Assembly: GCA_003455995.1 (NCBI GenBank)
Contig: DMPO01000006.1
Location: 38,397 to 102,396 of the forward strand
From: Candidatus Azambacteria bacterium
GTDB lineage: Bacteria > Patescibacteriota > Minisyncoccia > UBA10092
DNA length: 64,000 nt
Direction: 5' to 3'
Both the position numbers and the translations under genes were made by a program. Shown in pieces: positions 27 through 24,145 of this stretch; positions within the stretch are counted from its first letter, which is position 1, and the number at the start of each line of letters is the position of its first letter. The notes under the pieces are model-generated. The model saw nothing but the letters and a program-made list of their open reading frames with translations, was not told the origin of the DNA and ran no database searches.

Positions 27-1412
27 TTGCCAAAAAAATCACCGATGTTTATTTCTGCAAATAATAAAAAAACCTTTTGGCATTGGTGGTTTTTGGCGGC
101 CGCCATTTATCTGATTTTTGCCGTGGTTGTTACTTGGCGTTATGGCATAAGTTTTCTTATGCCCATGGGCGACGATACGGGTCATCATATCCAATTAGCT
201 AAAAATTTAATTGAATATCGAACTTTTTCTTTGGACGGGCTTGATGGTGCATATTCTGTAATGCCGCCGCAGCCGACAAACTTTTTAACGCCCGGTTACG
301 CATTTTGGTTGGCGCTGATATATCTTATTTTTAAGTCCTTTACGCCGGCGATTTTTATCGGCGCGATGGTTTTTGCCTTTTCAGCGCCTTTAACTTATTT
401 TTTGGCTAAGGAAATTACCGAAAATAACAAAATCGCTTTATGGTCGGCTCTTATCTTTATGATAGAGCCGCTGTCGATTTATCATTCCGGCTTGATGTTT
501 ACCGAGCAATTGTTCGTGCCTATTTTTTTAGCGGCTTGTTATGGTTTTATAAAATACTTAAACATCGGCGACAGAAAGTTTGTTTTTGGATCTTTATTTA
601 TTTTTTCATTGTCAACTCTCATCAGGCCGATTATTTTCTATCTTTTACCCATTTTATCTTTAATAGTTTTTATTAAAGAATCTAAATTTTCCTGGCGTCG
701 CGCCGCAATTTCGGGGATATTATCTTTAATTATCGCCTTTTCATTTGCCGGTGGTTGGCTTATCAGAAACAAAATTGTTTTAAATACCTGGCAAATTTCA
801 AGCAACCAAGGGGCACTTTTGTATGGTTATCATTATGAACTTCTAATGAGAAGTTTAGGACTCAATTCGGAAAGCCCCGATACGGGCAATCTTAATATTT
901 TTTCGGTCGCATATAATAACTTAAAAGGGGAATTTGCAACAGAAAAAATTTTGCAATATCGATGGAGTTATCTAAAACTTCATTTGACCTACATACCCAT
1001 TTTTTTCTTAAATAATGGTTATAGTGAGTTTTTTAGTCGATTAACCAACGCCATTGAACTTGATAAATATTTTAGACATGATTTGGCATTTGCCTTTTTA
1101 CAAGGTAATATTCTTAAAGGTGCACTGATGATTTCCGGCGCCCCAAATGAAATTTTTGTTTTAATTGGCGGAATTTTAATTTGGTTTTTAATATTCTCAC
1201 TGTCCATAGTGGGTTTTTGCGAATTATTTATAAAATTAAAAAGTAATCAAAAAATGATTATAAATATTATTGGCATTATAGTATTGTATTTTGCCGTTAT
1301 CGTTTCGCCGGGGGTAGTGGCGCGATATCGTTTGCCAATAAATCCTTTTGTTTTTATTTTCTTTGTCAGCGGCTTTTATGCTATTAAAGAAAAAATAAAA
1401 TTATGGATATAA
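27..1412 (+). CDS. Multi-pass membrane glycosyltransferase, GT-C fold (GT39/GT83, ArnT/PMT-like)
   Basis: 461 aa with many predicted TM helices. N-terminal region resembles PMT_2/ArnT polyprenyl-phosphate-sugar-dependent transferases. It lies next to a GT2 polyprenyl-P-sugar synthase gene. Confidence 0.55.
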   Translation: MPKKSPMFISANNKKTFWHWWFLAAAIYLIFAVVVTWRYGISFLMPMGDDTGHHIQLAKNLIEYRTFSLDGLDGAYSVMPPQPTNFLTPGYAFWLALIYLIFKSFTPAIFIGAMVFAFSAPLTYFLAKEITENNKIALWSALIFMIEPLSIYHSGLMFTEQLFVPIFLAACYGFIKYLNIGDRKFVFGSLFIFSLSTLIRPIIFYLLPILSLIVFIKESKFSWRRAAISGILSLIIAFSFAGGWLIRNKIVLNTWQISSNQGALLYGYHYELLMRSLGLNSESPDTGNLNIFSVAYNNLKGEFATEKILQYRWSYLKLHLTYIPIFFLNNGYSEFFSRLTNAIELDKYFRHDLAFAFLQGNILKGALMISGAPNEIFVLIGGILIWFLIFSLSIVGFCELFIKLKSNQKMIINIIGIIVLYFAVIVSPGVVARYRLPINPFVFIFFVSGFYAIKEKIKLWI

Positions 1413-2584
1413 GCAAAAAAACATTTATTAGGTTTATTATCGGACTAATTTTTTTAAGAATAATTTTGCTTTTTTTAATGATGAACAATGTTCCTTTTAC
1501 CGATATTCAGTCGGATTGGCGGCCGAATTTTGGCGGCTCCTATTGGCCGGATGAGGAAGTTTTTTTCAATCTGGCAAAATCTATGGCTGATTTTAAGCCG
1601 ATTATGAGTATTATATATATTGGCTATGCCATATTTTTAGCGCCATTTATATATTTTGTCGGCGCTACCGGCCCGGAAATGATCGCTCAAACAATGGTGA
1701 TAGTCCAAGGCATTATTCTTTTTTCCGCCGCTCTTATATTGATTGTATTTATTGGAGAAAAATTTTTTAAAAATAAAAAACTAGCGCTGGTAAGCGCCAC
1801 CTTGTTTCTTATTTATCCTTATTTGATGTTTGCGGTCTGGAAACTTATCGGTCACAAAAATGCCATTCCGACTTTTCACTACCAGATGTGGATTGTCATT
1901 TTGTCCGACTATTTATCGGCTCTTTTGGTAGTTTTAACTTTTTGGTTGTTTATTAAATTGATAGAACAATTTGAAGCAATAAATGCTAAGATTTATCATC
2001 TTGCTATTGTAATCGGAATTTTTGCCGGAGCGGCAGCTTTGGTAAGACCGCCGAATTTAGCGATACCGGCATTTTTATTTTTTTATCTTTTATACATCAA
2101 AAAATTTAAACCAGCGATTATTCTCGGCTTTTCTTCTTTTGCCGCTTATTTGCCGCAACTTATATACAACGCCTATTTTTTTGGTTGGCCATGGGTTTAC
2201 GGGAATATCGTTCTTGATTCCGGGTTGCAGCAAGGCGGTCCATTTTTTGGTCACTGGGTAAATCCGGCGAATTTTTGGCTGAATTTTAAACATTTTTCAC
2301 CTAATCACTATTTTATTTTTTTTCTTATTGCAGCCGCTTTTATGGTATCGATTTTTGTTTTAGGTAGGAGACATTTGGTTAAAACCAACAATAAATTTAT
2401 TACCGTATTTGTTTTTTGGTTTTTGTTTTATGCGCTTTTTTATGGTCAATTTAGCGGTTCCACCAGTCAATTGCGCTATTTTTTGCCCGCCATGCCAGTT
2501 TTCATTTACTTTTTTATCGCTGCTATGTTATATTTGCGCGCAAAACTAAAATTTAAAGAAAATTTAACACAAACAAATGTATAA
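1403..2584 (+). CDS. Integral membrane protein, putative second GT-C-type glycosyltransferase
   Basis: 393 aa and highly hydrophobic. Overlaps the neighbouring genes by a few nt (translational coupling). No sharper motif recognised. Confidence 0.4.
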   Translation: MDISKKTFIRFIIGLIFLRIILLFLMMNNVPFTDIQSDWRPNFGGSYWPDEEVFFNLAKSMADFKPIMSIIYIGYAIFLAPFIYFVGATGPEMIAQTMVIVQGIILFSAALILIVFIGEKFFKNKKLALVSATLFLIYPYLMFAVWKLIGHKNAIPTFHYQMWIVILSDYLSALLVVLTFWLFIKLIEQFEAINAKIYHLAIVIGIFAGAAALVRPPNLAIPAFLFFYLLYIKKFKPAIILGFSSFAAYLPQLIYNAYFFGWPWVYGNIVLDSGLQQGGPFFGHWVNPANFWLNFKHFSPNHYFIFFLIAAAFMVSIFVLGRRHLVKTNNKFITVFVFWFLFYALFYGQFSGSTSQLRYFLPAMPVFIYFFIAAMLYLRAKLKFKENLTQTNV

Positions 2585-3314
2585 AGAAAAAACAGTTTCA
2601 ATAGTTTTTGCTACTTATCGTGAAAAAGATTCAATAAGAATGGTTATTGAAAATTTTTTTAATACTGGTTTTGTGGATGAAGTTATAGTTGTTAATAATA
2701 ATGCCGAACCGGGAACGGTTGAAGAAATACAAAAAACCAAGGCTAGAATGGTTTATGAAAAAAGACAAGGATATGGCCATGCCTTCCAACGGGGCATGGA
2801 AGAGGCGAAAGGGGACTATATTTTCCTATGCGAACCGGATGGCACTTACACCGGCAAGGATTTGGAACGGTTTCTGGTCTATGCTCAAGATGGTTTTGAA
2901 GCTGTTTTAGGTTCGCGGACCGGTCAAAGCACGAAAATATCCGGAGCTGATATGGATTTTTTAAGAAAATTTGCCAATGTTTTTGAAGCTAAAACCATTG
3001 AATATTTATTCAATACCAATTCATTATCGGATATCGGATGCACTTATAAACTTTTTACTAAAGCGGGGATTAATAAAATCGCCCCCTTGTGGCGAACCAG
3101 AAACTCTCTTTTTGCCACCGAATTGGTGCTTTTAACCGCTGCCAAGAAAATACATTTCATTGAAATTCCCGTTACATTTAAAAAGCGCGTTGGCACTTCA
3201 ACTTTTGTAAGCACTTTTGCCAAAATGGCTAAGTGGGGTTTAAGAATCTACGCTTTTATTTTTATTTTTTGGTTTCGCTGGATTTTTAGAAAAATCTTTT
3301 CAAAAAACGCATGA
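2577..3314 (+). CDS. GT2 polyprenyl-phosphate sugar synthase (dolichyl-phosphate mannose synthase/ArnC/GtrB-like)
   Basis: N-terminal motifs VSIVFATYRE..EVIVVNNNAEPGT..YGHAFQRG..FLCEPDG are typical of GT2 DPM1-like enzymes. A C-terminal TM helix is present. Confidence 0.75.
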   Translation: MYKEKTVSIVFATYREKDSIRMVIENFFNTGFVDEVIVVNNNAEPGTVEEIQKTKARMVYEKRQGYGHAFQRGMEEAKGDYIFLCEPDGTYTGKDLERFLVYAQDGFEAVLGSRTGQSTKISGADMDFLRKFANVFEAKTIEYLFNTNSLSDIGCTYKLFTKAGINKIAPLWRTRNSLFATELVLLTAAKKIHFIEIPVTFKKRVGTSTFVSTFAKMAKWGLRIYAFIFIFWFRWIFRKIFSKNA

Positions 3315-4219
3315 ATTGTCCCATTTGCGATAATAATGATAGTCGGATAGTAAGATCGTTTTTCCCGAGATTTTATTATTGTCTTAATTGTGAGGGCCAT
3401 TTTCTCAGGGAAGATTCCGCGCCGGAATATGCCGAAGATTATTACGAACTTGAAAGCCGGAACTTGCTATCTAAATCAATCACAAGAGCGATTCGCGCAT
3501 TTTTTTTGCGCGCCAGATTTAAAAAAGTTAAATCGATTTTAAAAAATATTCCAAATAGCGTTGTTCTTGATTATGGCTGCGGTCCGGGAAATTTTGTTAA
3601 GTACGCCCTTAAAAAAAACCTAAAAATATTCGGTTACGAATCTTCAAAATCGGCTGTCCGCCTTGCGAAAGAAAATTCTCTTCCAGTATACGATTCGGTT
3701 GTTATTGCGCAGGGTAAATATGATCTGATTACGTTTTGGGGCAGTTTGGAGCATGCTGATAATCCCAAAGATATCGTTATTAAATGTCGCAATTACTTAA
3801 AAGAAGGAGGTAAGCTTCTTATCGCCCTGCAGAATGCCGATAGTTTTGAGGCGCGGCTGGCTAAGGAAAAATGGTTTCATTATGATTATCCTTTTCATCG
3901 CATCCAATTTACGCCTACGGCGCTTAAGAAAATACTTGAACAAAACGGCTACGAAGTAAGCTCGTTTGACTTTTTCTTTCCTGAATATACCGTATCCGGA
4001 TTAATACAAACATTTTTAAATTTTTTATTTCCCAAGAATGCCTTTTACTACGTTGTAAGCAACAGAAGATTAAGCGCCAGCAGCGCTAAAACAATTTTTA
4101 TCAACCTTTTTTCATTATTATCGCTTCTCGTTTTTTCGCCGATTTTATTATTATTCTTTCTAGTGGCTTTAGTTTTTAAAAAAACAGGAGCCATGGTCGT
4201 CCTTGCAAAAAAGGCGTAA
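3311..4219 (+). CDS. Class I SAM-dependent methyltransferase with N-terminal Cys4 zinc ribbon and C-terminal TM segment
   Basis: CPICDN...CLNCEG zinc ribbon. LDYGCGPGNF is SAM-binding motif I. The C-terminus is hydrophobic. Confidence 0.7.
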   Translation: MNCPICDNNDSRIVRSFFPRFYYCLNCEGHFLREDSAPEYAEDYYELESRNLLSKSITRAIRAFFLRARFKKVKSILKNIPNSVVLDYGCGPGNFVKYALKKNLKIFGYESSKSAVRLAKENSLPVYDSVVIAQGKYDLITFWGSLEHADNPKDIVIKCRNYLKEGGKLLIALQNADSFEARLAKEKWFHYDYPFHRIQFTPTALKKILEQNGYEVSSFDFFFPEYTVSGLIQTFLNFLFPKNAFYYVVSNRRLSASSAKTIFINLFSLLSLLVFSPILLLFFLVALVFKKTGAMVVLAKKA

Positions 4220-4237
4220 ATATTGTAAAAACTTACC

Positions 4238-4891
4238 ATGGCTAAGGAGCTTTATAATAAATATTTTGAGACGCATTTCCCGAAAGTAGAATACCGCGAC
4301 AAAATGTGGCACCCGGTAGTTGAATATTTACAGAAGAAATATGTTCCAAAAAACAGCATAGTGCTGGATTTAGGCGCCGGTTATTGTAATTTTATAAACC
4401 ATATTGTCGCTAAAGAAAAACATGCCAGTGATATTTCGGAAATTATCAAGCAAAATGCCGAGAAAGACGTAATTTGTCATATTCAAGACTGCGCCGAATT
4501 AAGTGATATTTCCGATGAAAAATTTGATATTGTTTTTGAGAGCAACCTTTTGGAACATTTAGATTCCGACCGTATTGAGAAAACACTAAAAGAAATTTTG
4601 AGAGTTTTAAAAAAGGGCGGCCGATTTATAGCCATGCAACCGAATTATAAATACTTTTACGCACATTATTTTGACGATTACACTCATAAGACAATTCTTT
4701 CCCATGTAAGCTTTGAGAATTTATTGAAAAATTACGGATTTGAAATAGAAAATATAGAACCGAAATTTTTACCGGCGACATTCAAACAAAAATTGCCGAA
4801 AATACCATTTTTGGTTAAATTATATCTAAGATCCCCTTGGCGACCGGCAGCCAAGCAAATGCTGGCAGTGGCCAAAAAACCAAATGTATAA
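4238..4891 (+). CDS. Class I SAM-dependent methyltransferase
   Basis: VLDLGAGYCNF is motif I. Length is consistent with Methyltransf_11/12-like proteins. Confidence 0.7.
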   Translation: MAKELYNKYFETHFPKVEYRDKMWHPVVEYLQKKYVPKNSIVLDLGAGYCNFINHIVAKEKHASDISEIIKQNAEKDVICHIQDCAELSDISDEKFDIVFESNLLEHLDSDRIEKTLKEILRVLKKGGRFIAMQPNYKYFYAHYFDDYTHKTILSHVSFENLLKNYGFEIENIEPKFLPATFKQKLPKIPFLVKLYLRSPWRPAAKQMLAVAKKPNV

Positions 4892-6113
4892 AACCAATAC
4901 TCATTGCCGAATGTGCAAAAGCGAAAATTTAAAGTTGTTTTTTGATTTGGGAGAAACGGCTTTGGCCAATTCTTTCCTGAAAAAAGAAGAACTTAACAAC
5001 CCCGAATCCAAGTATCCCTTGAGGGTATTTTTTTGCGAAGATTGCGGTTTAAGCCAGCTCGTGGATGTTGTCGACCCTTCGGTTTTATTCAGAAATTATG
5101 TTTATTTTTCTTCCGAAATGCCGGTTTTACCGGAACATTTTAAAAACTATGCCGAAGAGGCGGTTAATAATTTCGTAAAATCAAAGAACGGTTTGGTTGT
5201 GGAAATCGGCAGTAATGACGGGCTTCTTTTGGGCGCTATTAAAAATTTGGGCGCCAGAGTATTAGGCGTTGACCCTGCCGAAAATATTGCCAAAATTGCT
5301 AATGAAAGAGGGGTGGAAACAATTCCGGATTTTTTCAACGAAAAACTTGCCAAAGAAATCAAAGAAAAATATGGGCCAGCAAAAGTGATGATAGGAAATA
5401 ATGTTGTTGCTCATATTGATAATCATTATGATTTAATCAGCGGCGTCTCGACTCTTCTTGCCGACGGCGGGGTCTTCATGTTTGAAGCGCCGTATCTTGT
5501 GGATATGTTTGAAAATTATACTTTTGACACCATTTATCATGAACATCTTTCTTGTCTTTCGGTTAGGCCGCTTGTGAATCTTTTCAAACAATTTGGCATG
5601 GAACTTTTTGATGTGAAATTATTCCCCGTTCAAGGAAATTCCATAAGAGGATATGCCGGAAAAACGGGACAGCATGCAATTTCAATGAGAATCGGAGAAT
5701 TACTAGAAAAAGAAAAATCAATGGGATTAAATGATATTTCAACCTATTTTAAATTAGTAGACGATGTTGATGAAATGAGAAAAAAAGTTTTGACTATTCT
5801 TAAAGATTTGAAATTGCAAGGCAAGAAGATTTCCGGTTACGGCGCACCGGCTAAGGGCAATACTTTGCTTAGTTATTATGGTATTGGCGCGGATATTTTG
5901 GATTATGTAACCGATGAAACGACAAAAATTAATTTATATACGCCGGGCACTCATATTCCGGTAATAGATATTAAAGATGCCAGGAAAAATCCGCCTGATT
6001 ATTTTTTGCTTTTAGCTTGGAACTATAAGGATGCCATTTTGAAAAAAGAGGAAGACTTTAGGAAAAATGGCGGAAAATTTATCATGCCGGTCGGTAAAGT
6101 GGAGATTTTATAA
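4884..6113 (+). CDS. NDP-hexose C-methyltransferase family protein (TylCIII/TcaB9-like; Methyltransf_13 Zn-ribbon plus Methyltransf_14 C-terminal domain)
   Basis: N-terminal HCRMC...CEDC zinc-binding segment is followed by LFFDLGETALANSF, characteristic of sugar C-/O-methyltransferases of this family. It sits immediately upstream of rfbB. Confidence 0.6.
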   Translation: MYKTNTHCRMCKSENLKLFFDLGETALANSFLKKEELNNPESKYPLRVFFCEDCGLSQLVDVVDPSVLFRNYVYFSSEMPVLPEHFKNYAEEAVNNFVKSKNGLVVEIGSNDGLLLGAIKNLGARVLGVDPAENIAKIANERGVETIPDFFNEKLAKEIKEKYGPAKVMIGNNVVAHIDNHYDLISGVSTLLADGGVFMFEAPYLVDMFENYTFDTIYHEHLSCLSVRPLVNLFKQFGMELFDVKLFPVQGNSIRGYAGKTGQHAISMRIGELLEKEKSMGLNDISTYFKLVDDVDEMRKKVLTILKDLKLQGKKISGYGAPAKGNTLLSYYGIGADILDYVTDETTKINLYTPGTHIPVIDIKDARKNPPDYFLLLAWNYKDAILKKEEDFRKNGGKFIMPVGKVEIL

Positions 6114-6114
6114 T

Positions 6115-7167
6115 ATGCAACTTTCTTTTAAAAATATTTTGGTTTGCGGCGGGAGCGGATTTATCGGTTCAAATTTCATTCGTTATATTTATAACAAATA
6201 TCCCGATTGTAAAATATTTAATTTGGACTTGTTAACCTATGCCGGCAATCCGGCAAATCTTGCCGATATTGAAGAAAAAGAAAACAAGAGGAATCCAGCC
6301 AATCAAAGATGTCATTTTTTCCGCGGCGATATTTGCGATGGCGCTTTGCTTGCGAATATTTTTGAGAAATATAATTTTGACGCTGTTATTAATTTTGCCG
6401 CCGAAAGTCATGTCGATCGTTCTTTCGTGAGTGTTTTTGATTTTATAAGAACGAATGTTGAGGGCGTCAGATCTCTTATAGAAGCTACCAGGAAATATAA
6501 AGTTTCCAGATTTGTCCAAATTTCCACGGATGAAATTTACGGATCCGTGCCAGAAGGTTTTTCAACTGAAGACGCGCCTCTTAAACCGTCTAACCCGTAT
6601 GCCGCTTCCAAGGCCGCTGCTGATTTATTGGTTCAGTCATACATAAAGACGCATCAGGTTCCGGCGCTCATTGTTCGGGGTTCCAATAATTACGGCCCGT
6701 TTCAATATCCTGAAAAATTAATTCCTCTGGCGATATCAAATATTATTGAAGGCATTAAGGTGCCGATTCACGGTTCTGGGGAACACCGGCGCACATGGAT
6801 CCATGTAAATGATTTTTGCTCTGCTATTGACACCGCGCTTCATAAGGCGCCGGATTACAGTATCTATAACGCTTCTGGAGAAGAAAAAACCAATTTGGAA
6901 ATTCTTGAAATTATAGCTCGGCATCTTAAAAATTCAGAGGATTATAAAGAGCACACCAAAGACAGGCCCGGAGCGGATTTGCGTTATGCCCCGAATTCGT
7001 CAAAATTGAAATCAGAATTGGGCTGGCTTCCGCAATATCAAATAGAAAGCAGCATCGGGGAAGTCGTAAATTGGTATTTTAATAATCAAGATTGGTGGAA
7101 AAAAATTAAAAATTCGGAAGCTTTTCAATCTCATTATCAAAAACAATCTAAAGCGGAATATTATTGA
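6115..7167 (+). CDS. rfbB: dTDP-glucose 4,6-dehydratase
   Basis: MQLSFKNILVCGGSGFIGSNF Rossmann motif, DLLTYAGN, YAASKAAAD (YxxxK). The ORF track starts at 6067, but the ATG at 6115 directly follows the upstream stop and gives a canonical N-terminus. Confidence 0.85.
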   Translation: MQLSFKNILVCGGSGFIGSNFIRYIYNKYPDCKIFNLDLLTYAGNPANLADIEEKENKRNPANQRCHFFRGDICDGALLANIFEKYNFDAVINFAAESHVDRSFVSVFDFIRTNVEGVRSLIEATRKYKVSRFVQISTDEIYGSVPEGFSTEDAPLKPSNPYAASKAAADLLVQSYIKTHQVPALIVRGSNNYGPFQYPEKLIPLAISNIIEGIKVPIHGSGEHRRTWIHVNDFCSAIDTALHKAPDYSIYNASGEEKTNLEILEIIARHLKNSEDYKEHTKDRPGADLRYAPNSSKLKSELGWLPQYQIESSIGEVVNWYFNNQDWWKKIKNSEAFQSHYQKQSKAEYY

Positions 7168-8219
7168 TTATGGATATTAAAGAAAAAATAAATAAAATTC
7201 TAGTTACTGGCGGAGCCGGATATATTGGGGCGGTTCTGGTGCCGAAATTATTGAAAAAAGGCTATAAAGTCAGGGTTTTGGATAAAATGATTTTTGGTAA
7301 CGAGCCGATTAAAGAATTCAAAAATAAAATTGAATTGGTTGTTGGCGATTCCAGGCACGCCGGGCCGGAAATAATGGATGGGATTGACGCTGTGATTCAT
7401 TTAGCCGGATTCTCAACCGATCCGACTTCGCAATACGATCCTCGCCTTACCGATACGGTAAATCATATCGCCACGGAGCACTTAGCCAAATTGGCTCGGT
7501 CTCAAGGAATTAAAAGATTCGTTTACGCCTCTAGCTGTTCGGTTTATTTTACTTTAAACACTCCTTTGGAACCTCCCCTCTATAAAGAAGAGGATCCGAT
7601 CAATCCTATTTCTGCCTATGCTTTGAGCAAACGCTGTTCGGAACAAATTTTGTATGGGATGATAAATGATGATTTCCAGCCAACAATGTTTCGTAAAGGG
7701 ACGCTTTATGGCTGGTCGCCGAGAATGCGCTATGACTTGGTTTTCAATGCGTTTGTTAAAGACGCCTTTCATAAAAAACTCTTGACCGTTGACGCCGGCG
7801 GAGAAATTTGGCGGCCAATGATAGACATCCAAGATGCGACAGATACTTACATAAATGCCATAGAACTGCCGATTGAAAAGATCGGCGGTAAAATATTTAA
7901 TGTTGCCCATCAAAATTGGAGCATCGGCAATCTTGCCCGTGAAATCCAGAAAATTTTGAAAGAGAAAAAGGGTATTGATATTGCTTTGGATGTCAAGCCG
8001 ATAAGTTTGACAAGAAATTACAAGGCGGATACCCAAGCGTTTAATGAGGCCTTTAATTTTAAGCCGAGCCGTTCGTTTGAAGAAGCGGTTTTTGAAATAT
8101 GGGACCATTTGGAAAACGACTCGAATCACGATTCTAACCATGCGCGGCACTACGGCGATAAATGGTACAAACAATATTTTGAAACCGAAGAAGGTAAGGA
8201 ATTTAGGCGGCATGCGTAA
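7164..8219 (+). CDS. NAD-dependent epimerase/dehydratase (extended SDR family), sugar-nucleotide modifying
   Basis: ILVTGGAGYIG Rossmann motif and YALSK catalytic YxxxK. Substrate not assignable from sequence. Confidence 0.7.
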   Translation: MIMDIKEKINKILVTGGAGYIGAVLVPKLLKKGYKVRVLDKMIFGNEPIKEFKNKIELVVGDSRHAGPEIMDGIDAVIHLAGFSTDPTSQYDPRLTDTVNHIATEHLAKLARSQGIKRFVYASSCSVYFTLNTPLEPPLYKEEDPINPISAYALSKRCSEQILYGMINDDFQPTMFRKGTLYGWSPRMRYDLVFNAFVKDAFHKKLLTVDAGGEIWRPMIDIQDATDTYINAIELPIEKIGGKIFNVAHQNWSIGNLAREIQKILKEKKGIDIALDVKPISLTRNYKADTQAFNEAFNFKPSRSFEEAVFEIWDHLENDSNHDSNHARHYGDKWYKQYFETEEGKEFRRHA

Positions 8220-9072: not shown

Positions 9073-9074
9073 AT

Positions 9075-9464
9075 ATGCCTCAATTTTACGAATACAGAAC
9101 TCATTCTGACAACCGCCGAAGTGGTTCTTACGATATTATCCCCGGTATAGAGGGCGACTTTAATTTCACCAAGCATCCGGCCAGTATAATTCCGGAAGAA
9201 TTGCATATGCACAAAAATCAGACTGATTATTTTATCGTGGTTTCCGGTAAAGTGCTGTTTAGGCTTGTTTCCGATGATGGTGAAGAAGAAAAATTTATAA
9301 TGACAGATAAAGATAATAAAACTTTAATTATTCAACCGGGAATCTGGCATGGTTACGTGGCGCTTGAACCGTCATGCATGGCTTTTTATTTAAGCCATAA
9401 GTTTGATTCTTCCGACGAGTTCAGAAAAAAAACCGACCCGTCAGAATGGAAATTGTCAAAATGA
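9075..9464 (+). CDS. Small cupin-fold sugar-nucleotide epimerase/isomerase (RmlC/FdtA/WxcM-C-like)
   Basis: 129 aa with beta-rich cupin-like composition. HxH-containing segments (HMHKN, WHGY). Positioned between rfbD and the next transferase. Confidence 0.45.
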   Translation: MPQFYEYRTHSDNRRSGSYDIIPGIEGDFNFTKHPASIIPEELHMHKNQTDYFIVVSGKVLFRLVSDDGEEEKFIMTDKDNKTLIIQPGIWHGYVALEPSCMAFYLSHKFDSSDEFRKKTDPSEWKLSK

Positions 9465-11035
9465 TGATAGAAAAATTAAAAGAACATAAAATAGAAATTT
9501 TGTGTCTAGCCGTTATTTTATTGTTGGCTAGTTTTTTTTATTTTTATAATATCACCCAAAAAGGATTTTTTGACCATGACGAAGCTTGGTTTTCTTTGAC
9601 CGGCAATACTTACGCCGCCGCCCCAAAGATTTTAATAAACCATATTTTACATCCGCAAATAAGCGTTGAAGACCTTATTGCGCAATATATACCCGGCCAT
9701 ATCTTGTTTGGCACCTCTTTCAGACCATTTTTTATTTTTGTGAATGCGCTGGGGATATCAATTTTTGGCTACCATGATTATTCTATCTTTATACTCAATA
9801 GTATTATCGGACTTGTTTCTCTTTTGGTTTTGTATTATCTGGCGAAATCAATAACAAAAAACAACATTCAAGCGCTATTAGCCGCGTTTTTATTGGCGAT
9901 TTCAGGATATCAGATTTTTTTCGCAAGAAGCGGCCTTGCTCAAGTATTGGTTGGTTTTTTGTTAATTTTGGGCGCGATATTTTACGTCAAAACTCTGAAT
10001 GTCCCCGCTGGTTCTGGTCAGGAAAACTATAAAAATCTTTTATGGGCGGGATTTTTTTGGGGCATAATGTCCGTTTCCCACTACAGTATTATTGTAATTT
10101 TATTGTTGATTCTGGTTTTTGAAATTGCATTCACTCGCTTTTATCTTAAGCAAAAAATATCAGTTGCCGTTAAGCGGCTTTTGTGTCTCTTTTTGCCGAT
10201 AGCGCTGATGCTATTAGGGATGCAGGCAATCTCTTTTTTGCGAAATTACGCCCTTGACGAAATAGGGTATCCCGGAAAACCCATGCTTTATTTTGAAGAA
10301 TTTTTTTATCATTTTAATTCAGTAAGTGGCACGGGGTTTAGCTTTAAAAGCGTCGATTTAATTTTTTATGTTAAATTATTGCGCGACCTCAATGGCTGGC
10401 TCTACACACTGTTATTTTTAATCAGCCCGATTATTTTCTTTTATAAGAGATGGTATAAAAATCCTTCGCTGTTTTTTGTTTTTTTTATCGCTTGGGGATT
10501 TTTTTCCAGTTTCAGCATTATTGCGTTTAAAGGTACTAGAAATTTGGCCTTGATAGACGTTCTTATAAGTTTTATTTCGGCTTTGGTTTTGTATGAGTTA
10601 TTTAAATTTTATCAAACCAGATATTATCGGATTTTAATCATAGTTTTCGTTGTGGGTCTCTTAGTCAGCCAGTTGCGGATTGATTGGCAAATCATCAATT
10701 TAAAAAGCGGCTATAAAGAAGTGGCGCGATATATTACGGAAAATAATATACCGACCGAGGATGTTTACGGCGAAAATTGGCCGATACTAGCTTTTTATTT
10801 AAATAAAAAAGTCCAAATTCTTGATAGAAATCCGCGCATAGCATATTACGCATTTGATTGGCTTGTGAAAAGTGAAAAAGAAAAGGAATTTTTTTACGAC
10901 CTTCAGCGCAGGGGAAAAGTTATAGCGACGTTCGATAATCCGCCTGCGAATACATCAGCCGTGCTCGGCGAAAACGTTATTGTGCCTAAAGAAGATTTTA
11001 ACAAGATAAAGATTTATAAAGTGGTGCAATACTAA
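9446..11035 (+). CDS. Multi-pass membrane glycosyltransferase, GT-C fold (ArnT/PMT-like)
   Basis: 529 aa with about 12 TM helices. N-terminal DHDEAWF region and loop organisation resemble GT39/GT83 enzymes. Confidence 0.5.
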   Translation: MEIVKMMIEKLKEHKIEILCLAVILLLASFFYFYNITQKGFFDHDEAWFSLTGNTYAAAPKILINHILHPQISVEDLIAQYIPGHILFGTSFRPFFIFVNALGISIFGYHDYSIFILNSIIGLVSLLVLYYLAKSITKNNIQALLAAFLLAISGYQIFFARSGLAQVLVGFLLILGAIFYVKTLNVPAGSGQENYKNLLWAGFFWGIMSVSHYSIIVILLLILVFEIAFTRFYLKQKISVAVKRLLCLFLPIALMLLGMQAISFLRNYALDEIGYPGKPMLYFEEFFYHFNSVSGTGFSFKSVDLIFYVKLLRDLNGWLYTLLFLISPIIFFYKRWYKNPSLFFVFFIAWGFFSSFSIIAFKGTRNLALIDVLISFISALVLYELFKFYQTRYYRILIIVFVVGLLVSQLRIDWQIINLKSGYKEVARYITENNIPTEDVYGENWPILAFYLNKKVQILDRNPRIAYYAFDWLVKSEKEKEFFYDLQRRGKVIATFDNPPANTSAVLGENVIVPKEDFNKIKIYKVVQY

Positions 11036-11050
11036 ACAAATTCGGCAAAA

Positions 11051-12115
11051 ATGAAAATTCTCGTTATTACTCAAAAATATGACATTAATGATTCCAATCT
11101 TGGCGTTTTTATTGATTGGTGGGACCGATTGGCGGATAAAATGGAAAAAGTCTATATTTTGGCGCTTGAAAAACAATCGGAACCGACATTGTCTAATATG
11201 GAAGTTATAAGCATGGGGAAGGAAAAAGGCGCGGGATTTTTTAGAAAAGTTTGGGGTTTTTATGCCGGATTATTTAAAACTATTGGCAAAACAGATGCGA
11301 TTTTAGTCCATATGATTCCGAAATATGTCATTTTAGCGGCGCCGGTGGCATTTTTTTATAAAAAACCAATATACATGTGGTATACAGGGGTGTCGGTTCA
11401 CTGGCAGTTGCGCCTTGCGGTTATTTTCTGTAAAAAAGTTTTTACCGCCCATGAAGCGGGGATGCGCGTTAATACGAAAAAAAGAATTATTATTGGTCAT
11501 GGAATAGACACGCAGAAATTTTCAATTTCTAATTTTCAATTTTCAAATAATAAAGATGAAATTACGATTTTATCTGTGGGGAGAATCACGCCAACCAAAG
11601 GGCACGATTTTGTTATACGCGCTGTAGCGGATTTAATAAAATCCGGTTACAATCTCAAACTAAAAATAATCGGCGGGATAATCCAAAATTACCACAAAGA
11701 ATATTCGGAATCTTTAAAAACATTGGCCAAGAATTTACAGGCAGAAAAAAGCATAGAATTTTTAGGTCCAGTTTCTTACAAAGATATGCCGAGTTATTTT
11801 CAAAAAGCCGATATTTTGATTAATGCCGTAACTTTCGGCGGGTTGGATAAAGTTGTGCTGGAAGCCATGGCCTCGGGCGTCATTCCGCTGACTTCTAACA
11901 GCGCGTTTCTTACGGTATTCTCGGAAGAGACGGCGCGGGATTTTGTTTTTAAAGCCGGAGACGGGGAGGATTTAAAAATAAAATTAAGGCATATTCTTGA
12001 TGGAAAGATTTACTTTGATCAAAATCTATGCTCTGCTTTAAGAGATATAGTTGTTAAGAATCACAATCTTGATAATTTAATTGAGCGGATAGTAAAGGAG
12101 GTGGCAAATGATTGA
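11051..12115 (+). CDS. GT4 family glycosyltransferase (Glycos_transf_1)
   Basis: C-terminal ILSVGRITPTKGHDF...EAMASGVIPL signature of GT-B retaining transferases. Confidence 0.75.
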   Translation: MKILVITQKYDINDSNLGVFIDWWDRLADKMEKVYILALEKQSEPTLSNMEVISMGKEKGAGFFRKVWGFYAGLFKTIGKTDAILVHMIPKYVILAAPVAFFYKKPIYMWYTGVSVHWQLRLAVIFCKKVFTAHEAGMRVNTKKRIIIGHGIDTQKFSISNFQFSNNKDEITILSVGRITPTKGHDFVIRAVADLIKSGYNLKLKIIGGIIQNYHKEYSESLKTLAKNLQAEKSIEFLGPVSYKDMPSYFQKADILINAVTFGGLDKVVLEAMASGVIPLTSNSAFLTVFSEETARDFVFKAGDGEDLKIKLRHILDGKIYFDQNLCSALRDIVVKNHNLDNLIERIVKEVAND

Positions 12116-12704
12116 TTATTTTTCGCAAAATTACAGCGATAAAAGGCGCTGGATGAGTTATTGGCATCAGATTCGGGAGATTTTAAGTTTCAAGCCCGAA
12201 AATGTTTTGATTATCGGCAAGGGCGATGGTTTAATCGCGGAATACCTGAAACTAAAAAACATTAAAATCATTACCCTTGACATTGATGAAAATATAAAAC
12301 CGGATATTGTCGCTTCGGTTATAAAAATGCCTTTTAATGATAATGAATTTGACGCTGTCTTATGCGCGCAGGTGCTGGAGCATTTGCCTTACGAGGACTT
12401 CGGAAAGGCGACTCTCGAAATAAAAAGAGTGGCAAAAAAAGGCGCGGTTATTTCTCTGCCTCATTTCGGCCCGGCAATCAGGATTTTTTTAAAAATCCCA
12501 TTTTTGCCGGAGTTAAAATTAAGCATAAAATTGCCCTATCCGATAAAGCATCGATTCAAAGGAGAGCATTATTGGGAAATAGGCAAAAGAAATTATCCAT
12601 TGAAATTAATCAAATCGGAAATGATAAAATCGGGCTTTTCCATAAAAAAAGATTATATCGTTTTTGAAAATCCGGCGCACCATTTTTTTATTTTGAAAAA
12701 ATAA
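12108..12704 (+). CDS. Class I SAM-dependent methyltransferase
   Basis: VLIIGKGDGLIAEYL is motif I. AVLCAQVLEHL is motif II-like. Confidence 0.65.
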   Translation: MIDYFSQNYSDKRRWMSYWHQIREILSFKPENVLIIGKGDGLIAEYLKLKNIKIITLDIDENIKPDIVASVIKMPFNDNEFDAVLCAQVLEHLPYEDFGKATLEIKRVAKKGAVISLPHFGPAIRIFLKIPFLPELKLSIKLPYPIKHRFKGEHYWEIGKRNYPLKLIKSEMIKSGFSIKKDYIVFENPAHHFFILKK

Positions 12705-12705
12705 A

Positions 12706-13851
12706 ATGAAAATAATTTACATAAGCAATTCCCGAATTCCCACAGAGAAAGCCAATGGGTTTCAAATTATGAAGATGTGCGAGGCATTTTCCAACGCCGG
12801 CGCCAAAGTGGAACTCTGGATTCCTAAAAGATTCAACCGGATTAAAGAAGATCCGTTTTCCTATTACAATGTTGGGAAGATATTCGATATAAAAAAAATT
12901 TCGGTTATAGATACCATTCCTTTGGAAAAATTTTTTGGATCGATTGCCGGTTTGGCGGAATCGATATCGTTTTCAATTTTTGTTTTGTTTCATATTCTGA
13001 AAAGAGAGCAAAAAAATCTAATTTATTCTCGTGATCAATTTATTTGTTGGTTTTTAAGTTTTTTTAACGAGAAATTTGTATATGAAATTCACAGTTTCCC
13101 AAAAAATTTTAGATTATACAAAAGATTATGGAGGAAAACGCATTGCGTAGTGGCGATAACTCAAGGACTGAAAAGCCTTCTTATTGAACATGGGATAGAT
13201 TCGGGGAAAATACTGGTCGCGTCCGATGGAGTTGATTTGGAATTTTTTAATTCCGTCAATCAACCCAAAGAAGATATCAGAATCGAATTGAATCTTCCGG
13301 CGGGTGATTTTTTAGTGGGGTATGTCGGTAAATTTAAAACATTAGGCATGGAAAAAGGCATAAAAACAATGATTTCGGCCATACCTCTTTTGGGTAAAGA
13401 AATCAAAATAGTTTTTGTCGGCGCCGAAGAATCCGAGATAAAAGAATATAAAAATATGGCCAATCGCCTCAACGCGCTTTCGCAATGTCTGATTATTAAT
13501 AATCAGCCGTATTTAAAAGCCGTAAAATATATGAAAGCCATGGACGCGCTTGTCATACCGTTTCCCAACGCGCCTCATTATGCTTTTTACGCTTCACCGC
13601 TTAAACTTTTTGAATATATGGCGGCGGGGAGGCCGATTATCGCTTCCGACCTGCCCGCTCTAAGGGAGATTTTGAACGACAAAAACGCTCTCTTTTTTAA
13701 GCCGGAAGATGTGGATGATTTGGCGCGCGCCGTTAAAATGCTGAAATTAAGCCAAACTCTTTGTTATCATTTAAGTGGGCAAGCGTTTTCCGATGTCAAA
13801 AATTATACTTGGGGAGCAAGAGCCAAAAAAATTTTAAATTTTCTGCCATGA
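12706..13851 (+). CDS. GT4 family glycosyltransferase
   Basis: GYVGKFKTLGMEKGI...EYMAAGRPIIASDL is typical GT4 architecture. Confidence 0.7.
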   Translation: MKIIYISNSRIPTEKANGFQIMKMCEAFSNAGAKVELWIPKRFNRIKEDPFSYYNVGKIFDIKKISVIDTIPLEKFFGSIAGLAESISFSIFVLFHILKREQKNLIYSRDQFICWFLSFFNEKFVYEIHSFPKNFRLYKRLWRKTHCVVAITQGLKSLLIEHGIDSGKILVASDGVDLEFFNSVNQPKEDIRIELNLPAGDFLVGYVGKFKTLGMEKGIKTMISAIPLLGKEIKIVFVGAEESEIKEYKNMANRLNALSQCLIINNQPYLKAVKYMKAMDALVIPFPNAPHYAFYASPLKLFEYMAAGRPIIASDLPALREILNDKNALFFKPEDVDDLARAVKMLKLSQTLCYHLSGQAFSDVKNYTWGARAKKILNFLP

Positions 13852-14549
13852 AAAATATTATAGTTCTTCCGACATACAATGAAAAAGAGAATGTCGCTCT
13901 CTTGGTGAAAGAAATATTCTTATCGCTTCCCGATATCGATATAATGGTGGTCGATGACAATTCGCCCGATGGCACCGCGGCAGAAGTTGAGAACTTGATG
14001 ATTCAATATGCCAATCTTTCTATTTTGAAACGGCCGATAAAAGACGGTTTGGGCAGAGCATATATTGACGGCTTTAAAAAATTGCTTGTTCGTGAAGATA
14101 TAGAAAATGTTATTACAATGGACTCGGATTTTTCTCATAATCCTAAATATTTACCCCAAATGCTTGAAGAAGCAAAAAGTCATGATTTGGTTGTTGGCTC
14201 CAGGTATATTAAAGGCGGGGGGATAACCAATTGGGAATTATGGCGCCGGTTTTTAAGCAAAGGAGGCAATTTTTATGTTGGAATGCTGCTCGGGAAAAAA
14301 ATCAACGACTGGTCATCGGGTTTTAATTGTATAAGAATTTCCGCTTTAAGAAAAATTAATCTGGATGGAATTGAATTTTACGGATACGCTTTTCTTAGCT
14401 GTCTCAAGTATTTTTTAGTAAAAGCGGGTGCACAAGCCAAGGAAATCCCGATAATTTTTGAAGAAAGAAGAAAAGGCAAGTCGAAAATGTCGGGAAGTAT
14501 AATCCGTGAAGGACTTATAGCGCCATGGAAAATATTATTTACAAAATAA
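13848..14549 (+). CDS. GT2 polyprenyl-phosphate sugar synthase (DPM synthase-like)
   Basis: MKNIIVLPTYNEKENV..DIMVVDDNSPDGT..DSDFSHNP motifs. Start set to the ATG at 13848, which overlaps the upstream stop as ATGA. The ORF-track start at 13761 lies inside the upstream gene. Confidence 0.75.
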   Translation: MKNIIVLPTYNEKENVALLVKEIFLSLPDIDIMVVDDNSPDGTAAEVENLMIQYANLSILKRPIKDGLGRAYIDGFKKLLVREDIENVITMDSDFSHNPKYLPQMLEEAKSHDLVVGSRYIKGGGITNWELWRRFLSKGGNFYVGMLLGKKINDWSSGFNCIRISALRKINLDGIEFYGYAFLSCLKYFLVKAGAQAKEIPIIFEERRKGKSKMSGSIIREGLIAPWKILFTK

Positions 14550-16213
14550 AACATCATTGGGTGGCAATCAGCGTTGCGATTATTCTTGGCGTCACGATGA
14601 TTGCCCCAATTTTTTATTTTCAAGCAAAACTCAACGAAAATTTTAGAGGAATCCCACCGAAAGTTGTAAATGATGTAGATTTTTATTACGCGCGCATCAA
14701 AGATGTTGTCGATGGGCATTCATTTTTAAGCAATGCTTATTTATTTGAACATAAAAACGGCCTGCCCCAACAAGTATTTTTCGCGGAATGGCTTTTAGCT
14801 CAACCGATAAAAATATTTAATCTGAATATCAACATCGTCCATCTTATCTATAATTTTTTATTGCCGGCGGTTGCTTTCATTCTAACTTATTTAGCGCTGT
14901 TTCTGATTTCAAAATCGCGATTTTGGTCAACAAGTTTATCCGTTTTTTTGTTTTTCGGACTATATTTATTATCTTTTATCCGGCCGGTAAGCCCGCAATT
15001 TAATTTTATTTTTTGGTTGACGCAGTTTATATTTCTTTGGCTGCTCATAATGGAGCAGAAAAAAAGGTGGGTTTGGTTCTCGGCGATTAATTTTGGTCTG
15101 CTTTTTTACATTTATCCTTACTATTGGACTTTTTATCTGATTTTTTTCGGTATTTTAACGGCTGTTTATTTTTGGAAAAACAAGGAACTTGCTCTCAGGA
15201 TTGCCATCATTGCCGCTGGCGGGCTTATCTTGGCTATCCCGTATTTTTATTTTAATTACTTATCGGCGCGATTGCCTTATTATACCGAAACATTGACGCG
15301 CCTGGGAATGATTTATTCCCATTTCCCGTCAGGATTCAGGATAATATTTTGGAGCGCGTTAGGTTTTGTGGTTTTTGGCTGGTTTTTATGGCGCAAAATT
15401 ATTACTTGGGACGCTAAAACACAATTTTTTATTTCAGGCATTATGGCGAGTATTATCGCAGTAAATCAGCATATTATAACCGGAAAAAATTTTGAATTTT
15501 CCAGCCATTATGATATGTCGGCCATGTTTTTTTTGATATTTGTCGCAGCTTATTTGATAAGCCAGTATAGTGCCAATTTAAAAATAATCTTAGGTATTGT
15601 CGTTTTTGTTTTTTCTATTTTAGGCATTAAAAATTATTCTGAGAGAGTTTTTGTCATTGATAAAAATGTCGTTTACCGGCAAAATTATGTGCCAATTTTT
15701 GATTGGCTTAGTAAAAACACCGAAAAAGACTCCGTAGTATACGCTAATATTGATATATCGGGACTAATTTCGGTTTATACTGCCAATAATATTTTTTATG
15801 TGCGTGAGGCTAATCTCTTTTTTATCTCCGACGCGGAAGTTTTGGACAGGTTTATTCTGAATAGTTTTTTCGAAAAATTTAATGAGGATTTCATCATTAA
15901 TAATGACAGGTCAATTTACGGCGTCAGATATATCGATGCGTTTGGGCATACGGTTCAAGCCAATAAATTACTCCGCCTTTTGGGCTTAAAATTAAAACCG
16001 GAAGTATATTTGCCGGAAGAAGCGATTGAAAAAGTTATAACGCGAGCCAAAGAGCTTCAAAAAAACGATTTCATAGATGAATTGAAAAAATTCCGTGTTG
16101 ATTACTTGATTTGGGATAAAAACAAAAATCCAAATTGGAAAATCAATGCTAAAAATTTTAAGCCCGTTTTTAAAAGCGACAATCTGATTATTTTTAAATT
16201 TTTAAGTTCATGA
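14525..16213 (+). CDS. Large polytopic membrane protein, putative GT-C-type transferase
   Basis: 562 aa with many TM helices. Directly follows a GT2 lipid-sugar synthase gene. No specific motif recognised. Confidence 0.45.
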   Translation: MENIIYKIKHHWVAISVAIILGVTMIAPIFYFQAKLNENFRGIPPKVVNDVDFYYARIKDVVDGHSFLSNAYLFEHKNGLPQQVFFAEWLLAQPIKIFNLNINIVHLIYNFLLPAVAFILTYLALFLISKSRFWSTSLSVFLFFGLYLLSFIRPVSPQFNFIFWLTQFIFLWLLIMEQKKRWVWFSAINFGLLFYIYPYYWTFYLIFFGILTAVYFWKNKELALRIAIIAAGGLILAIPYFYFNYLSARLPYYTETLTRLGMIYSHFPSGFRIIFWSALGFVVFGWFLWRKIITWDAKTQFFISGIMASIIAVNQHIITGKNFEFSSHYDMSAMFFLIFVAAYLISQYSANLKIILGIVVFVFSILGIKNYSERVFVIDKNVVYRQNYVPIFDWLSKNTEKDSVVYANIDISGLISVYTANNIFYVREANLFFISDAEVLDRFILNSFFEKFNEDFIINNDRSIYGVRYIDAFGHTVQANKLLRLLGLKLKPEVYLPEEAIEKVITRAKELQKNDFIDELKKFRVDYLIWDKNKNPNWKINAKNFKPVFKSDNLIIFKFLSS

Positions 16214-17580
16214 ATAAAAATAAACGGATTATTTTAATTTTTTTTATCGCCGTTTTGTCGGGGATTTTTTGGAATCAAAAAATGTTCGGTCAGTCGATTA
16301 GTTCCGATCAGCTAGGCTACGACGGTATTGCCATGGATATATTGAACAATGGGCAATTTACTGATTATGGGCAGCAAACATTCAGAGAACCTGGTTATTC
16401 TTTGTTTTTAGCTTTAATTTACAAAATTTTTGGTCACAATTATGATGCCGTCAGATTTATCCAGATTATTCTTTTTGGATTATTAGCCGTTATTATTTAT
16501 CTTCTGGCCAAAGATGTCTTTGGCCAGAAGATTGCGATTTTTTCAAGTTTAGGCACAGCGCTTTTTTACGGCCTTGCCAATCAGGCCGGTTTAATTATGA
16601 CCGAACTTTTATTCGCATTTCTAATTTGTCTTTTCATATTTTTCGCTTATAAGACATCCGCGGAGAACGGCAATAAATGGCTGATGTTTTCCGCGCTGGT
16701 TTTAGGGGTCGCGACTCTGGTTCGGGGCGTGGCCGAGTTTTTCTTCTTTTTTGCGATAGTTAATTTTTTCATCATTTTTAGAAGAAAAATTTCATATAAA
16801 AAGATTTTTGCCAAAATTATAATTTTCACGGTTTGTTTTTTTGTCGTTTTAACGCCATGGCTCGTCAAAAATAAATTTCGGAACGGCATTTCCGTTTCGC
16901 CGCTGATCGGCCATTTTCTGCTGCTGCAGACCGAACGAATGAAGGCGCTATACCCCCGCTACGCCGGCCATTTTGCGGGGTATTTACTAGGTTATTATAC
17001 CGCGGAACAATTGGGAATTTACGGTGGCTCGATCGACGATAAATATATTTCCCATTTTGAAGAGCCGATTCAGTTAAGAACTGAAGAATTTATTGCCGCC
17101 GGTTATGATTATGAAGATATCAGTAATATTTTTACCAAAGAAGCTTTGCCTAAAATCGCCAGGCATCCGATACAATTTTTATCCGTGTCGGTATTGAATT
17201 TCGTCAATTTTAATAGTCCGATTTTAATGCGCGGTCCGCTGTGGCAGAACGCGGCCGATCTTTATCCCCAATTCGCCGACGGCCGCCATCCGGAGATCCC
17301 CAGTTATCTTAAATTGATCATTGTTTTAACTCCGCGCCTGTTGTGGTTTTTATTATTCTTTTTCGTGATAAAGGCGGTAATAAAAAACATTTGCAATTGG
17401 AATAAAATTAGCTGGATCATTTTGATAATAGCTTATTTCAATATTATGTACGGCGTTTCTTCCGGCCTTAATCGTTACGCCTTGCCGATTTATCCTTTTT
17501 ATGTTATTCTGGCGGTTATTGGAATTTCAATCTTGTGGCAAAAAATCAAAGAAAAAAAATCGCTTTTATCACGGGAATAA
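16210..17580 (+). CDS. Membrane glycosyltransferase, GT-C fold (ArnT/GT83 or GT39-like)
   Basis: The segment [36 protein letters not shown] is characteristic of ArnT/PMT_2 family N-termini. Confidence 0.6.
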
Positions 17581-19515: not shown

Positions 19516-19519
19516 TTTT

Positions 19520-20185: not shown

Positions 20186-20207
20186 AAACTGCCCGTTTTG
20201 AAAAGTA

Positions 20208-20737: not shown

Positions 20738-20756
20738 ATAATGGAGGTTTTGTTAG

Positions 20757-21992: not shown

Positions 21993-22005
21993 TTGATTTA
22001 TTCAG

Positions 22006-22040: not shown

Positions 22041-22043
22041 AGG

Positions 22044-22072: not shown

Positions 22073-22084
22073 AATGTAAACTCC

Positions 22085-23395: not shown

Positions 23396-23398
23396 ATT

Positions 23399-24142: not shown

Positions 24143-24145
24143 ATA

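Follow-up and report, generated by a model that had tools for sequence, protein, structure and literature searches.

The closest described counterparts of the system reported here are the multi-component transmembrane glycosylation systems, in which a GT-A-fold glycosyltransferase (GT) makes an undecaprenyl-phosphate-linked (C55-P) sugar, a flippase moves the sugar-lipid and a GT-C-fold enzyme transfers the sugar to an extracytoplasmic acceptor (PMC8035078). Monoderm examples are CsbB/GtcA/YfhO, GtlA/GtlB, CsdAB/CD/EF and GacI-GacJ/GacK/GacL, and GacI/GacK represents a documented variant in which a soluble GT-A enzyme is combined with a Wzx-type flippase (PMC8035078). In this work, we analyzed a stretch of 64,000 nucleotides from Candidatus Azambacteria (Parcubacteria/Patescibacteria, candidate phyla radiation, CPR), covering positions 38,397 to 102,396 of contig DMPO01000006.1 in assembly GCA_003455995.1. 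This whole stretch is referred to as the window, and coordinates are those of the window unless another locus is named. It contains the core of a cell-envelope glycan locus of ~55 kb. Mapping of open reading frames (ORFs) combined with Pfam searches identified three short family 2 glycosyltransferase (GT2) genes, each located beside genes for multi-pass membrane proteins, and we consider it likely (probability roughly 0.78) that these constitute three modules of the multi-component transmembrane glycosylation type. An initial annotation of this DNA had proposed that the GT2s charge polyprenyl phosphate and that the GT-Cs transfer the sugar outside the membrane. The ORFs were present at the coordinates it named, and its core proposal was supported by homology, fold and linkage.

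All three GT2s, named GT2a (2577-3314), GT2b (13848-14549) and GT2c (42564-43280) and all encoded on the plus strand, scored above the PF00535 cut-off, and PfDPMS and/or ArnC were their best solved relatives. GT2b, a DPM1-like protein of 233 residues, aligned with the dolichyl-phosphate (Dol-P) mannose synthase PfDPMS (5mlz) over residues 1-223 with an E-value of 2.9e-32. It keeps E12, D39, D89xD91, H94, R117, R131, S135, F177, R202 and K208 of PfDPMS and differs from it at Q93 (Ser) and K178 (Leu). In PfDPMS, the residues that hold the lipid phosphate are Arg117, Arg131 and Ser135, which belong to the catalytic domain and interface helix 1 (PMC5526996). GT2b retains each of these Dol-P phosphate ligands, as well as R202 and K208 of the A-loop. 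The residues expected of a Dol-P/polyprenyl-P mannose synthase (DxD, Arg117, Arg131, Ser135 and Arg202) are thus all present, and GT2b is probably a polyprenyl-phosphate hexose synthase, with mannose as the probable sugar. GT2c (238 residues) is ArnC/AglJ-like, and its alignment with ArnC (9hwj; E-value of 4.8e-21) spans residues 7-217, comprising both the catalytic and the interface regions. The corresponding E-value for DPMS was 4.5e-16, and AglJ gave 117 bits, which is under the cut-off of that model. GT2a (245 residues; PF00535 63 bits) ends in a hydrophobic aromatic C-terminal helix. In PDB, its family profile matched DPMS best (4e-7 over the N-terminal half), followed by ArnC with 2.6e-5 over residues 4-208, a stretch that takes in the R-x-G-x-S loop, and we regard GT2a as a candidate polyprenyl-phosphate glycosyltransferase genetically tied to a C-methyl-deoxysugar pathway. 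Homology thus points to GT-A enzymes making a polyprenyl-monophosphate-sugar for GT2b and GT2c, and more weakly for GT2a.

None of the three GT2s contains a predicted transmembrane (TM) helix, which is also the case for human DPM1 and the catalytic domain of mycobacterial Ppm1, both TM-less forms of DPMS. The initial annotation had regarded C-terminal, lipid-phosphate-binding helices as indispensable for its reading, an expectation that does not itself hold, as PfDPMS deprived of its entire TM domain is still membrane-targeted and active (PMC5526996). Since the lipid phosphate is bound at the interface helices and TM-less PfDPMS works, the absence of TM helices is not decisive.

The six multi-pass membrane proteins are encoded by 27-1412, 1403-2584, 9446-11035, 14525-16213, 16210-17580 (all plus strand) and 41396-42532 (minus strand). 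Four of them exceed the Pfam gathering scores for PMT or PMT_2. The protein of 461 residues encoded by 27-1412 is PMT-like with ~10 TM helices (27.5 bits for PMT at a cut-off of 22.7; PMT_2 was matched weakly), has a K/R-rich N-terminal tail and carries Asp49-Asp50 after TM1. In the other three, PMT_2 was matched with 36.1 bits (cut-off 26.1) by 9446-11035 (529 residues; Asp43-x-Asp45-Glu46 after TM1), with 61.2 bits by 16210-17580 (456 residues; Asp33 and Asp38 after TM1) and with 32.7 bits by 41396-42532 (378 residues; Asp44 after TM1). The remaining two proteins, of 393 residues (1403-2584) and 562 residues (14525-16213), had no match in Pfam, NCBIfam or PDB in sequence and profile searches, and hhalign comparison of their families with the PMT_2 paralogues gave weak loop-1 alignments alone, with a probability of <=10%. 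As these searches gave nothing, their assignment as GT-Cs rests on predicted structure. AlphaFold2 (AF2) models were obtained with confidence scores (pLDDT) of 94.2 for the 562-residue and 90.8 for the 393-residue protein. In Foldseek searches with the former, all 22 matches at E<=1e-3 were GT-C enzymes, whereas transporters appeared at probabilities <0.2 and TM-scores <=0.13. AftA was its closest full-length structural match, with 434 residues aligned at 10% identity. The 562-residue protein consists of a TM domain and a C-terminal soluble domain, the latter presumably extracytoplasmic.

A K/R-rich N-terminus, which indicates an N-in topology, followed by an Asp 3-20 residues past TM1, is common to all six proteins. 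In alignments of homologues, Asp50 is invariant in the 393-residue family, where Glu51 is nearly invariant, and Asp50 is nearly invariant in the 562-residue family; many polar residues in the extracytoplasmic loops of both orphan families are conserved as well. By these features, the six proteins are assigned as multi-spanning transferases of the GT-C fold whose acidic motif is predicted to lie in an extracytoplasmic loop, and the Pfam scores, the AF2 and Foldseek results and the loop-1 Asp agree with the earlier view that they are GT-Cs rather than transporters. Two of the families, one of them very large, are new to Pfam and NCBIfam. Relationship to the N-oligosaccharyltransferases (STT3/AglB/PglB, GT66) was considered and rejected on account of the WWDxG motif of their C-terminal domain: although the fold resembles STT3 and AglB, the six GT-C sequences contain neither WWD nor W[WYF]D[YWFN]G.

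The closest named homologues of both orphan GT-Cs are labelled Candidatus Azambacteria, Parcubacteria or Patescibacteria. Clustered at 50% identity, the 562-residue family, a large uncatalogued family of Patescibacteria, comprises 2575 representatives at E<=1e-3, 1927 at 1e-10 and 915 at 1e-30, and a scan of GTDB genomes placed it almost only in metagenome-assembled genomes (MAGs) labelled Patescibacteria/CPR. The exceptions were five loci from four binned MAGs labelled Gammaproteobacteria and several labelled just 'bacterium'. Among the 59 loci having upstream DNA, a GT2b orthologue (>=43% identity) was located directly 5' of the 562-family gene in 11. In 33 loci it was encoded on the same strand within 3 kb upstream, frequently separated from the GT-C gene by a single methyltransferase gene. 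This adjacency persists across divergent CPR classes, and in some lineages both parts are joined in a single GT2b::GT-C polypeptide (P0064, P0069 and P0074; 47-48% identity to GT2b and 46-50% to the GT-C). The N-terminal placement of the GT2 fits a cytoplasmic enzyme preceding an N-in TM1. Two further fusions, each recorded in one protein, join the GT-C to GtrA_DPMS_TM (P0329, PF04138 72 bits; one representative) and a 562-family GT-C to Polysacc_deac_1 (P0430), and in locus L002 a GtrA gene is found in the vicinity of the module. Another homologue of the 562-residue protein (P0019) is interrupted at residues 198-309 by a PD-(D/E)XK nuclease domain (PF13366), which looks like an element inserted in the gene.

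The small 393-residue family accompanies GT2a orthologues (67-77% identity) within a conserved block of the order GT-C(393), GT2a, two methyltransferases, C-methyltransferase, RmlB, RmlD, cupin and PMT_2 GT-C(529), which is syntenic in five loci (L071, L072, L077, L078 and L080); in the last four of these, the homologue of the 9446-11035 GT-C likewise closes the deoxysugar block. Homologues of the 27-1412 protein are encoded directly 5' of GT2a orthologues in three loci (L115, L123 and L148). In a metagenome scan seeded with GT2a, 18 loci had enough flanking sequence, and all 18 had a C-methyltransferase gene within 10 kb, with RmlB encoded in 14 of them and RmlD in 15. Of the 16 unique loci, at least 13 contained a recognisable GT-C. 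In addition, multi-TM proteins of 476-576 residues without Pfam match adjoin GT2a orthologues in other CPR contigs (L089 7907-9451, L101 7889-9457, L128 13874-15496 and L099 11036-15802) and may represent further uncatalogued GT-C families, and a member of the 393-residue family (P0128) carries a C-terminal extension of 230 residues without Pfam match. In the window itself, GT2 and GT-C genes overlap. Overlaps, adjacency in 33 of 59 loci and fusions all show that GT-A and GT-C genes are genetically coupled, and the fusions and the conserved gene order in Patescibacteria tie these parts into a known mechanism of transmembrane glycosylation.

Beyond the folds, family relations, conserved catalytic and lipid-phosphate residues, linkage and fusions described above, we infer the following scheme of donors, flipping, acceptor and methylation. 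GT2a, GT2b and GT2c would each pass one sugar of a nucleotide-sugar donor to polyprenyl phosphate at the cytoplasmic face, the TM-less enzymes being held at the membrane through amphipathic interface helices. The polyprenyl-P-sugar would then be flipped, for which the Wzx-family protein (35098-36360), the major facilitator superfamily (MFS) protein (20757-21992) or a GtrA encoded elsewhere are candidates. The six GT-Cs would consume the lipid-linked sugars outside the membrane, with the catalytic Asp in the first extracytoplasmic loop, and the acceptor would most likely be the Wzx/Wzy-dependent, GT4-built wall glycopolymer of the same locus, with Ser/Thr-rich wall-anchored proteins as a second possibility. 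The class-I methyltransferases would O-methylate sugars.

Neighbouring genes suggest donors for each module. The product of GT2b is most likely polyprenyl-P-mannose formed from GDP-mannose, on account of its DPMS-like guanine-binding Asp and mannose-contacting residues and of the GDP-mannose 4,6-dehydratase gene (17535-18518, plus strand; NCBIfam gmd 478.7, cut-off 415) two genes 3', past both GT-C genes. The presence of this gene beside the second module indicates that GDP-mannose metabolism is present. GT2c may form polyprenyl-P-glucose, as it is followed in the plus-strand arm 42564-44172 by a gene for a GalU-like UTP-glucose-1-phosphate uridylyltransferase (216.8 bits, below the GalU cut-off of 326.8). 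By synteny, GT2a may carry the product of the neighbouring dTDP-6-deoxyhexose and C-methyltransferase pathway.

Two extensions of this scheme may be put forward, which we judge to be rather unlikely. The GT2a family shows high conservation among CPR bacteria, and GT2a could act as a polyprenyl-phosphate transferase whose substrate is a C-methyl-branched 6-deoxyhexose made from a nucleotide sugar. If so, the donor used in extracytoplasmic glycosylation would be a branched deoxysugar linked to a lipid monophosphate, and we know of no such donor. The uncatalogued 562-residue GT-C could also serve to anchor its TM-less GT2 to the membrane and perhaps provide a path for translocation, the GT2 and GT-C being fused in some lineages; the two would then form a self-contained two-protein system.

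The acceptor proposed here agrees with the content of the locus, where genes for an initiating polyprenyl glycosylphosphotransferase (PGT), Wzx, Wzy, five GT4s (all five in the window, as identified by Pfam) and a TagF-like protein are found together with the modules. The segment 35098-39920 encodes a Wzx-type flippase (Polysacc_synt, minus strand), the initiating PGT (Bac_transf, minus strand; TIGR03025 305.7, cut-off 295.55) and a polymerase/ligase-like Wzy_C+TPR protein (plus strand), and the lipid-PP-linked polymer that this machinery would make is a likely acceptor. Two Wzy_C+TPR fusions are present in the locus, one of 733 residues (37719-39920) and one of 690 residues (L074 671-2743), and the same architecture also adjoins GT2/GT-C modules in other CPR genomes (L002 and L115).

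Weighing against the three-module interpretation are the lack of a GtrA homologue or small multi-TM ORF in the window in a GtrA search, the number of GT-Cs, which at six for three GT2s precludes one-to-one pairing, and the weak similarity of GT2a to DPMS and ArnC, to which ordinary GT2s score nearly equally. An alternative, possible but in our view unlikely, is protein O-glycosylation of the Ppm/PMT type, in which at least some GT-Cs would modify Ser/Thr of wall-anchored, S-layer or pilin proteins, not a glycopolymer. The DPM1-like character of GT2b would agree with this, as would the score of the 27-1412 protein above the PF02366 (PMT) cut-off, but that match spans only profile positions 89-171 of 245, and no PMT_4TMC or MIR domain was found by Pfam in any of the six GT-Cs. 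PMT (GT39) orthology was rejected on the same grounds. The whole glycan locus is furthermore bracketed by PG_binding_1 proteins, encoded by 46407-48395 downstream and by L074 1-453 at the other end. The former (plus strand) is a secreted protein with a Ser+Thr content of 26%, a C-terminal peptidoglycan-binding domain and a linker (PATPAVPATPA...PATPATPATP) which we take to resemble actinobacterial O-mannosylation sites, making it a plausible candidate acceptor for O-glycosylation. Against this, the complete PGT/Wzx/Wzy/GT4 polymer pathway in the locus offers an obvious glycan acceptor, and AftA, the closest structural match of the 562-residue enzyme, acts on polysaccharide.

It is improbable that the GT2s are ordinary cytoplasmic enzymes extending a lipid-PP-linked repeat unit, with the GT-Cs using other donors or acting as polymerase or ligase and the adjacency reflecting ordinary clustering of glycan genes. 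The closeness of GT2s of other function behind the weak PDB matches of GT2a could be read in this way, as could the NCBIfam equivalog matches of the GT2s, which were all far below cut-offs, and their lack of TM helices. GT2b nevertheless retains all Dol-P phosphate ligands of PfDPMS, and GT2c aligns with ArnC through the interface region (E of 5e-21). Ordinary clustering also accounts poorly for the GT2::GT-C and GtrA::GT-C fusions and for an adjacency conserved across divergent CPR classes, and a polymerase or ligase role is already covered by the dedicated Wzy_C proteins. That some GT-C-fold proteins are instead non-catalytic anchors or scaffolds for the TM-less GT2s, like GacJ for GacI and DPM3 for DPM1, would account for the need of these GT2s for a membrane tether, their fusion to GT-Cs in some lineages and the two-to-one excess of GT-Cs, but is very improbable given the (nearly) invariant loop-1 Asp and the many conserved polar residues in extracytoplasmic loops, and anchoring and catalysis are not mutually exclusive.

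In addition to the GT2s and GT-Cs, the modules contain several sugar-modifying enzymes. Where the initial annotation had seven S-adenosylmethionine (SAM) methyltransferases plus a C-methyltransferase, we identified seven in all, comprising six class-I enzymes (starting at 3311, 4238, 12108, 19406/19520, 24146 and, on the minus strand, 40788) and one of the TylC3 type; four of the seven lie within 27-17580. The first class-I enzyme (3311-4219, plus strand; Methyltransf_23 78.7 bits) carries a CxxC..CxxC motif at its N-terminal end and a TM helix at its C-terminal end (257-288), and its substrate may be a lipid-linked sugar, methylated at the membrane. It shares 27% identity with a methyltransferase encoded between GT2b and GT-C orthologues in L002 (5116-5994). 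A related gene is likewise located between GT2b and GT-C in L003, and a spacing of one gene is seen there in many other loci. In the window, 3311-4219 is followed on the plus strand by a second class-I methyltransferase (4238-4891; Methyltransf_11 46.5 bits), the TylC3-type sugar C-methyltransferase (4884-6113; Methyltransf_14 168 bits, Methyltransf_13 84 bits) and dTDP-6-deoxyhexose genes (6115-9464). The latter encode RmlB (NCBIfam dTDP-glucose 4,6-dehydratase 393.6, cut-off 365.1), a short-chain dehydrogenase/reductase (SDR) annotated as epimerase/reductase, RmlD (300.9, cut-off 224) and a WbuC/FdtA-like cupin (Pfam FdtA). Between the 529-residue GT-C and GT2b, the plus strand encodes two GT4s (Glycos_transf_1 95 and 69 bits) with a class-I methyltransferase between them (Methyltransf_11 48.7 bits; 11051-13851). 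In the third module, the GT-C gene is followed on the minus strand by a class-I methyltransferase gene (40788-41399; Methyltransf_11 42.3 bits).

The region 27-27416 is a run of 27 genes in one direction, and with gene starts chosen to agree with the gene calls, 24 of its 26 junctions are <=20 nt and 13 are overlapping. In the first module, GT2a adjoins two GT-C genes as initially described, but both precede the GT2 gene and do not flank it. The tight packing of the run was borne out, whereas the idea of a single polycistronic unit was weakened by intergenic gaps of 96 nt (20186-20281) and 92 nt (21993-22084), the latter containing a terminator-like, T-tailed hairpin with a 12-bp stem (22005-22032). 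Because of these two gaps and the hairpin, the run is probably two to three transcription units rather than one. A promoter scan was uninformative (67 sites against 65 expected). The strongest hairpin of the terminator scan was a perfect palindrome of 34 nt at 16499-16532 (ATCTTCTGGCCAAAGATGTCTTTGGCCAGAAGAT, 15-bp stem), inside the GT-C gene 16210-17580. The remainder of the run (18496-27416, plus strand; Pfam) encodes, in its 5' part, a GT4, a methyltransferase, a small cytidylyltransferase and the MFS protein, and in its 3' part a 436-residue protein of unknown function, a polysaccharide deacetylase, a methyltransferase, a GT4 and the TagF-like glycerophosphotransferase. The 436-residue protein (22085-23395), encoded by the first gene past the terminator-like hairpin, is soluble, has no Pfam or NCBIfam match and carries a nucleotidyltransferase-like motif (GISDMDFWAVF).

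A sub-cluster at 27394-35042 is richer in GC than the upstream DNA (0.45-0.48 vs 0.35-0.39) and encodes a PseF-like cytidylyltransferase, a B12-dependent radical SAM protein, a 2-hydroxy-3-oxopropionate-reductase-like dehydrogenase, a full-length transketolase-like protein, a KdsC-like phosphatase, an SDR and a NeuB-like synthase. It looks like a pathway of the ulosonic-acid type with unusual transketolase and B12-dependent radical SAM partners. Both B12-dependent radical SAM genes of the initial annotation were confirmed (28186-29847 and 44804-46333, both on the minus strand). Housekeeping genes begin ~48 kb into the window. The ~55 kb of the locus include an upstream extension of ~8.6 kb beyond the window, which contains three more GT4s and the 5' part of a fourth, ending in the first bases of the window, as well as genes for a DUF2334 protein, a methyltransferase, the second Wzy_C+TPR protein and a PG_binding_1 protein of 1159 residues. 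Look-ups of exact proteins located the sequence in metagenome assemblies from groundwater and in GCA_001774215.1, and a 21-kb stretch of the latter (MEZB01000001.1) has an identical gene order.

The abundant and mostly uncultured CPR/Patescibacteria are thought to live attached to host cells, and the composition of their surface is almost unstudied; a literature search on CPR glycosylation systems gave nothing specific. The glycan locus takes up a few percent of the genome (the longest contig with the locus has 585 kb, and a size of around 1 Mb is typical of CPR genomes). The present results are a well-supported advance in annotation of CPR surface biology, not a new mechanism. New are the TM-less GT2s, no anchor of which was found, the natural fusions of a GT-C with GT2 or GtrA seen in relatives and the close link between a GT2/GT-C module and a C-methyl-deoxysugar pathway. 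As two GT-C families are missed by current domain databases, one of them with at least 915 clusters at 50% identity, Pfam and CAZy entries for both would improve the annotation of thousands of CPR genomes. The enzyme assignments are concrete and testable, and the natural fusions are convenient constructs for biochemistry.

Compared with known systems, the label 'ArnC/ArnT- or Ppm/PMT-like' of the initial annotation is appropriate as a mechanistic resemblance but not as orthology, curated cut-offs having been missed. ArnC/ArnT orthology was rejected (ArnT PRK13279 19.7 bits vs 567; ArnC PRK10714 <=72 bits vs 529), and Pfam scans found none of the arn genes ArnA, ArnB and ArnD in the window. CPR bacteria are regarded as monoderms, and as lipid A genes were likewise not observed in the window, the acceptor must differ from the lipid A used by ArnT. 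AftA (GT85) shares 10% identity with the 562-residue GT-C, and here the pathway genes for decaprenyl-P-arabinose are absent and the donor-forming enzyme is a GT2. The alignment of GT2b with PfDPMS extends through the complete catalytic domain and the region of the interface helices, but GT2b is without TM domain, and its lipid is presumably undecaprenyl-P and not dolichyl-P. Relative to the monoderm multi-component systems, the window has no YfhO matches, two of its GT-Cs are from families without Pfam or NCBIfam model, its GT2s are TM-less with no GacJ-like partner or GtrA gene in the window, there are six GT-Cs for three GT2s, and the modules are embedded among deoxysugar, C-methylation and O-methylation genes. 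Shared with these systems are a GT2 that would make a C55-P-sugar, a GT-C that would transfer the sugar to a wall polymer outside the cell and the presence of several GT-A/GT-C pairs per genome, and the working scheme proposed here is also like that of Ppm1 with the GT-Cs of actinobacteria.

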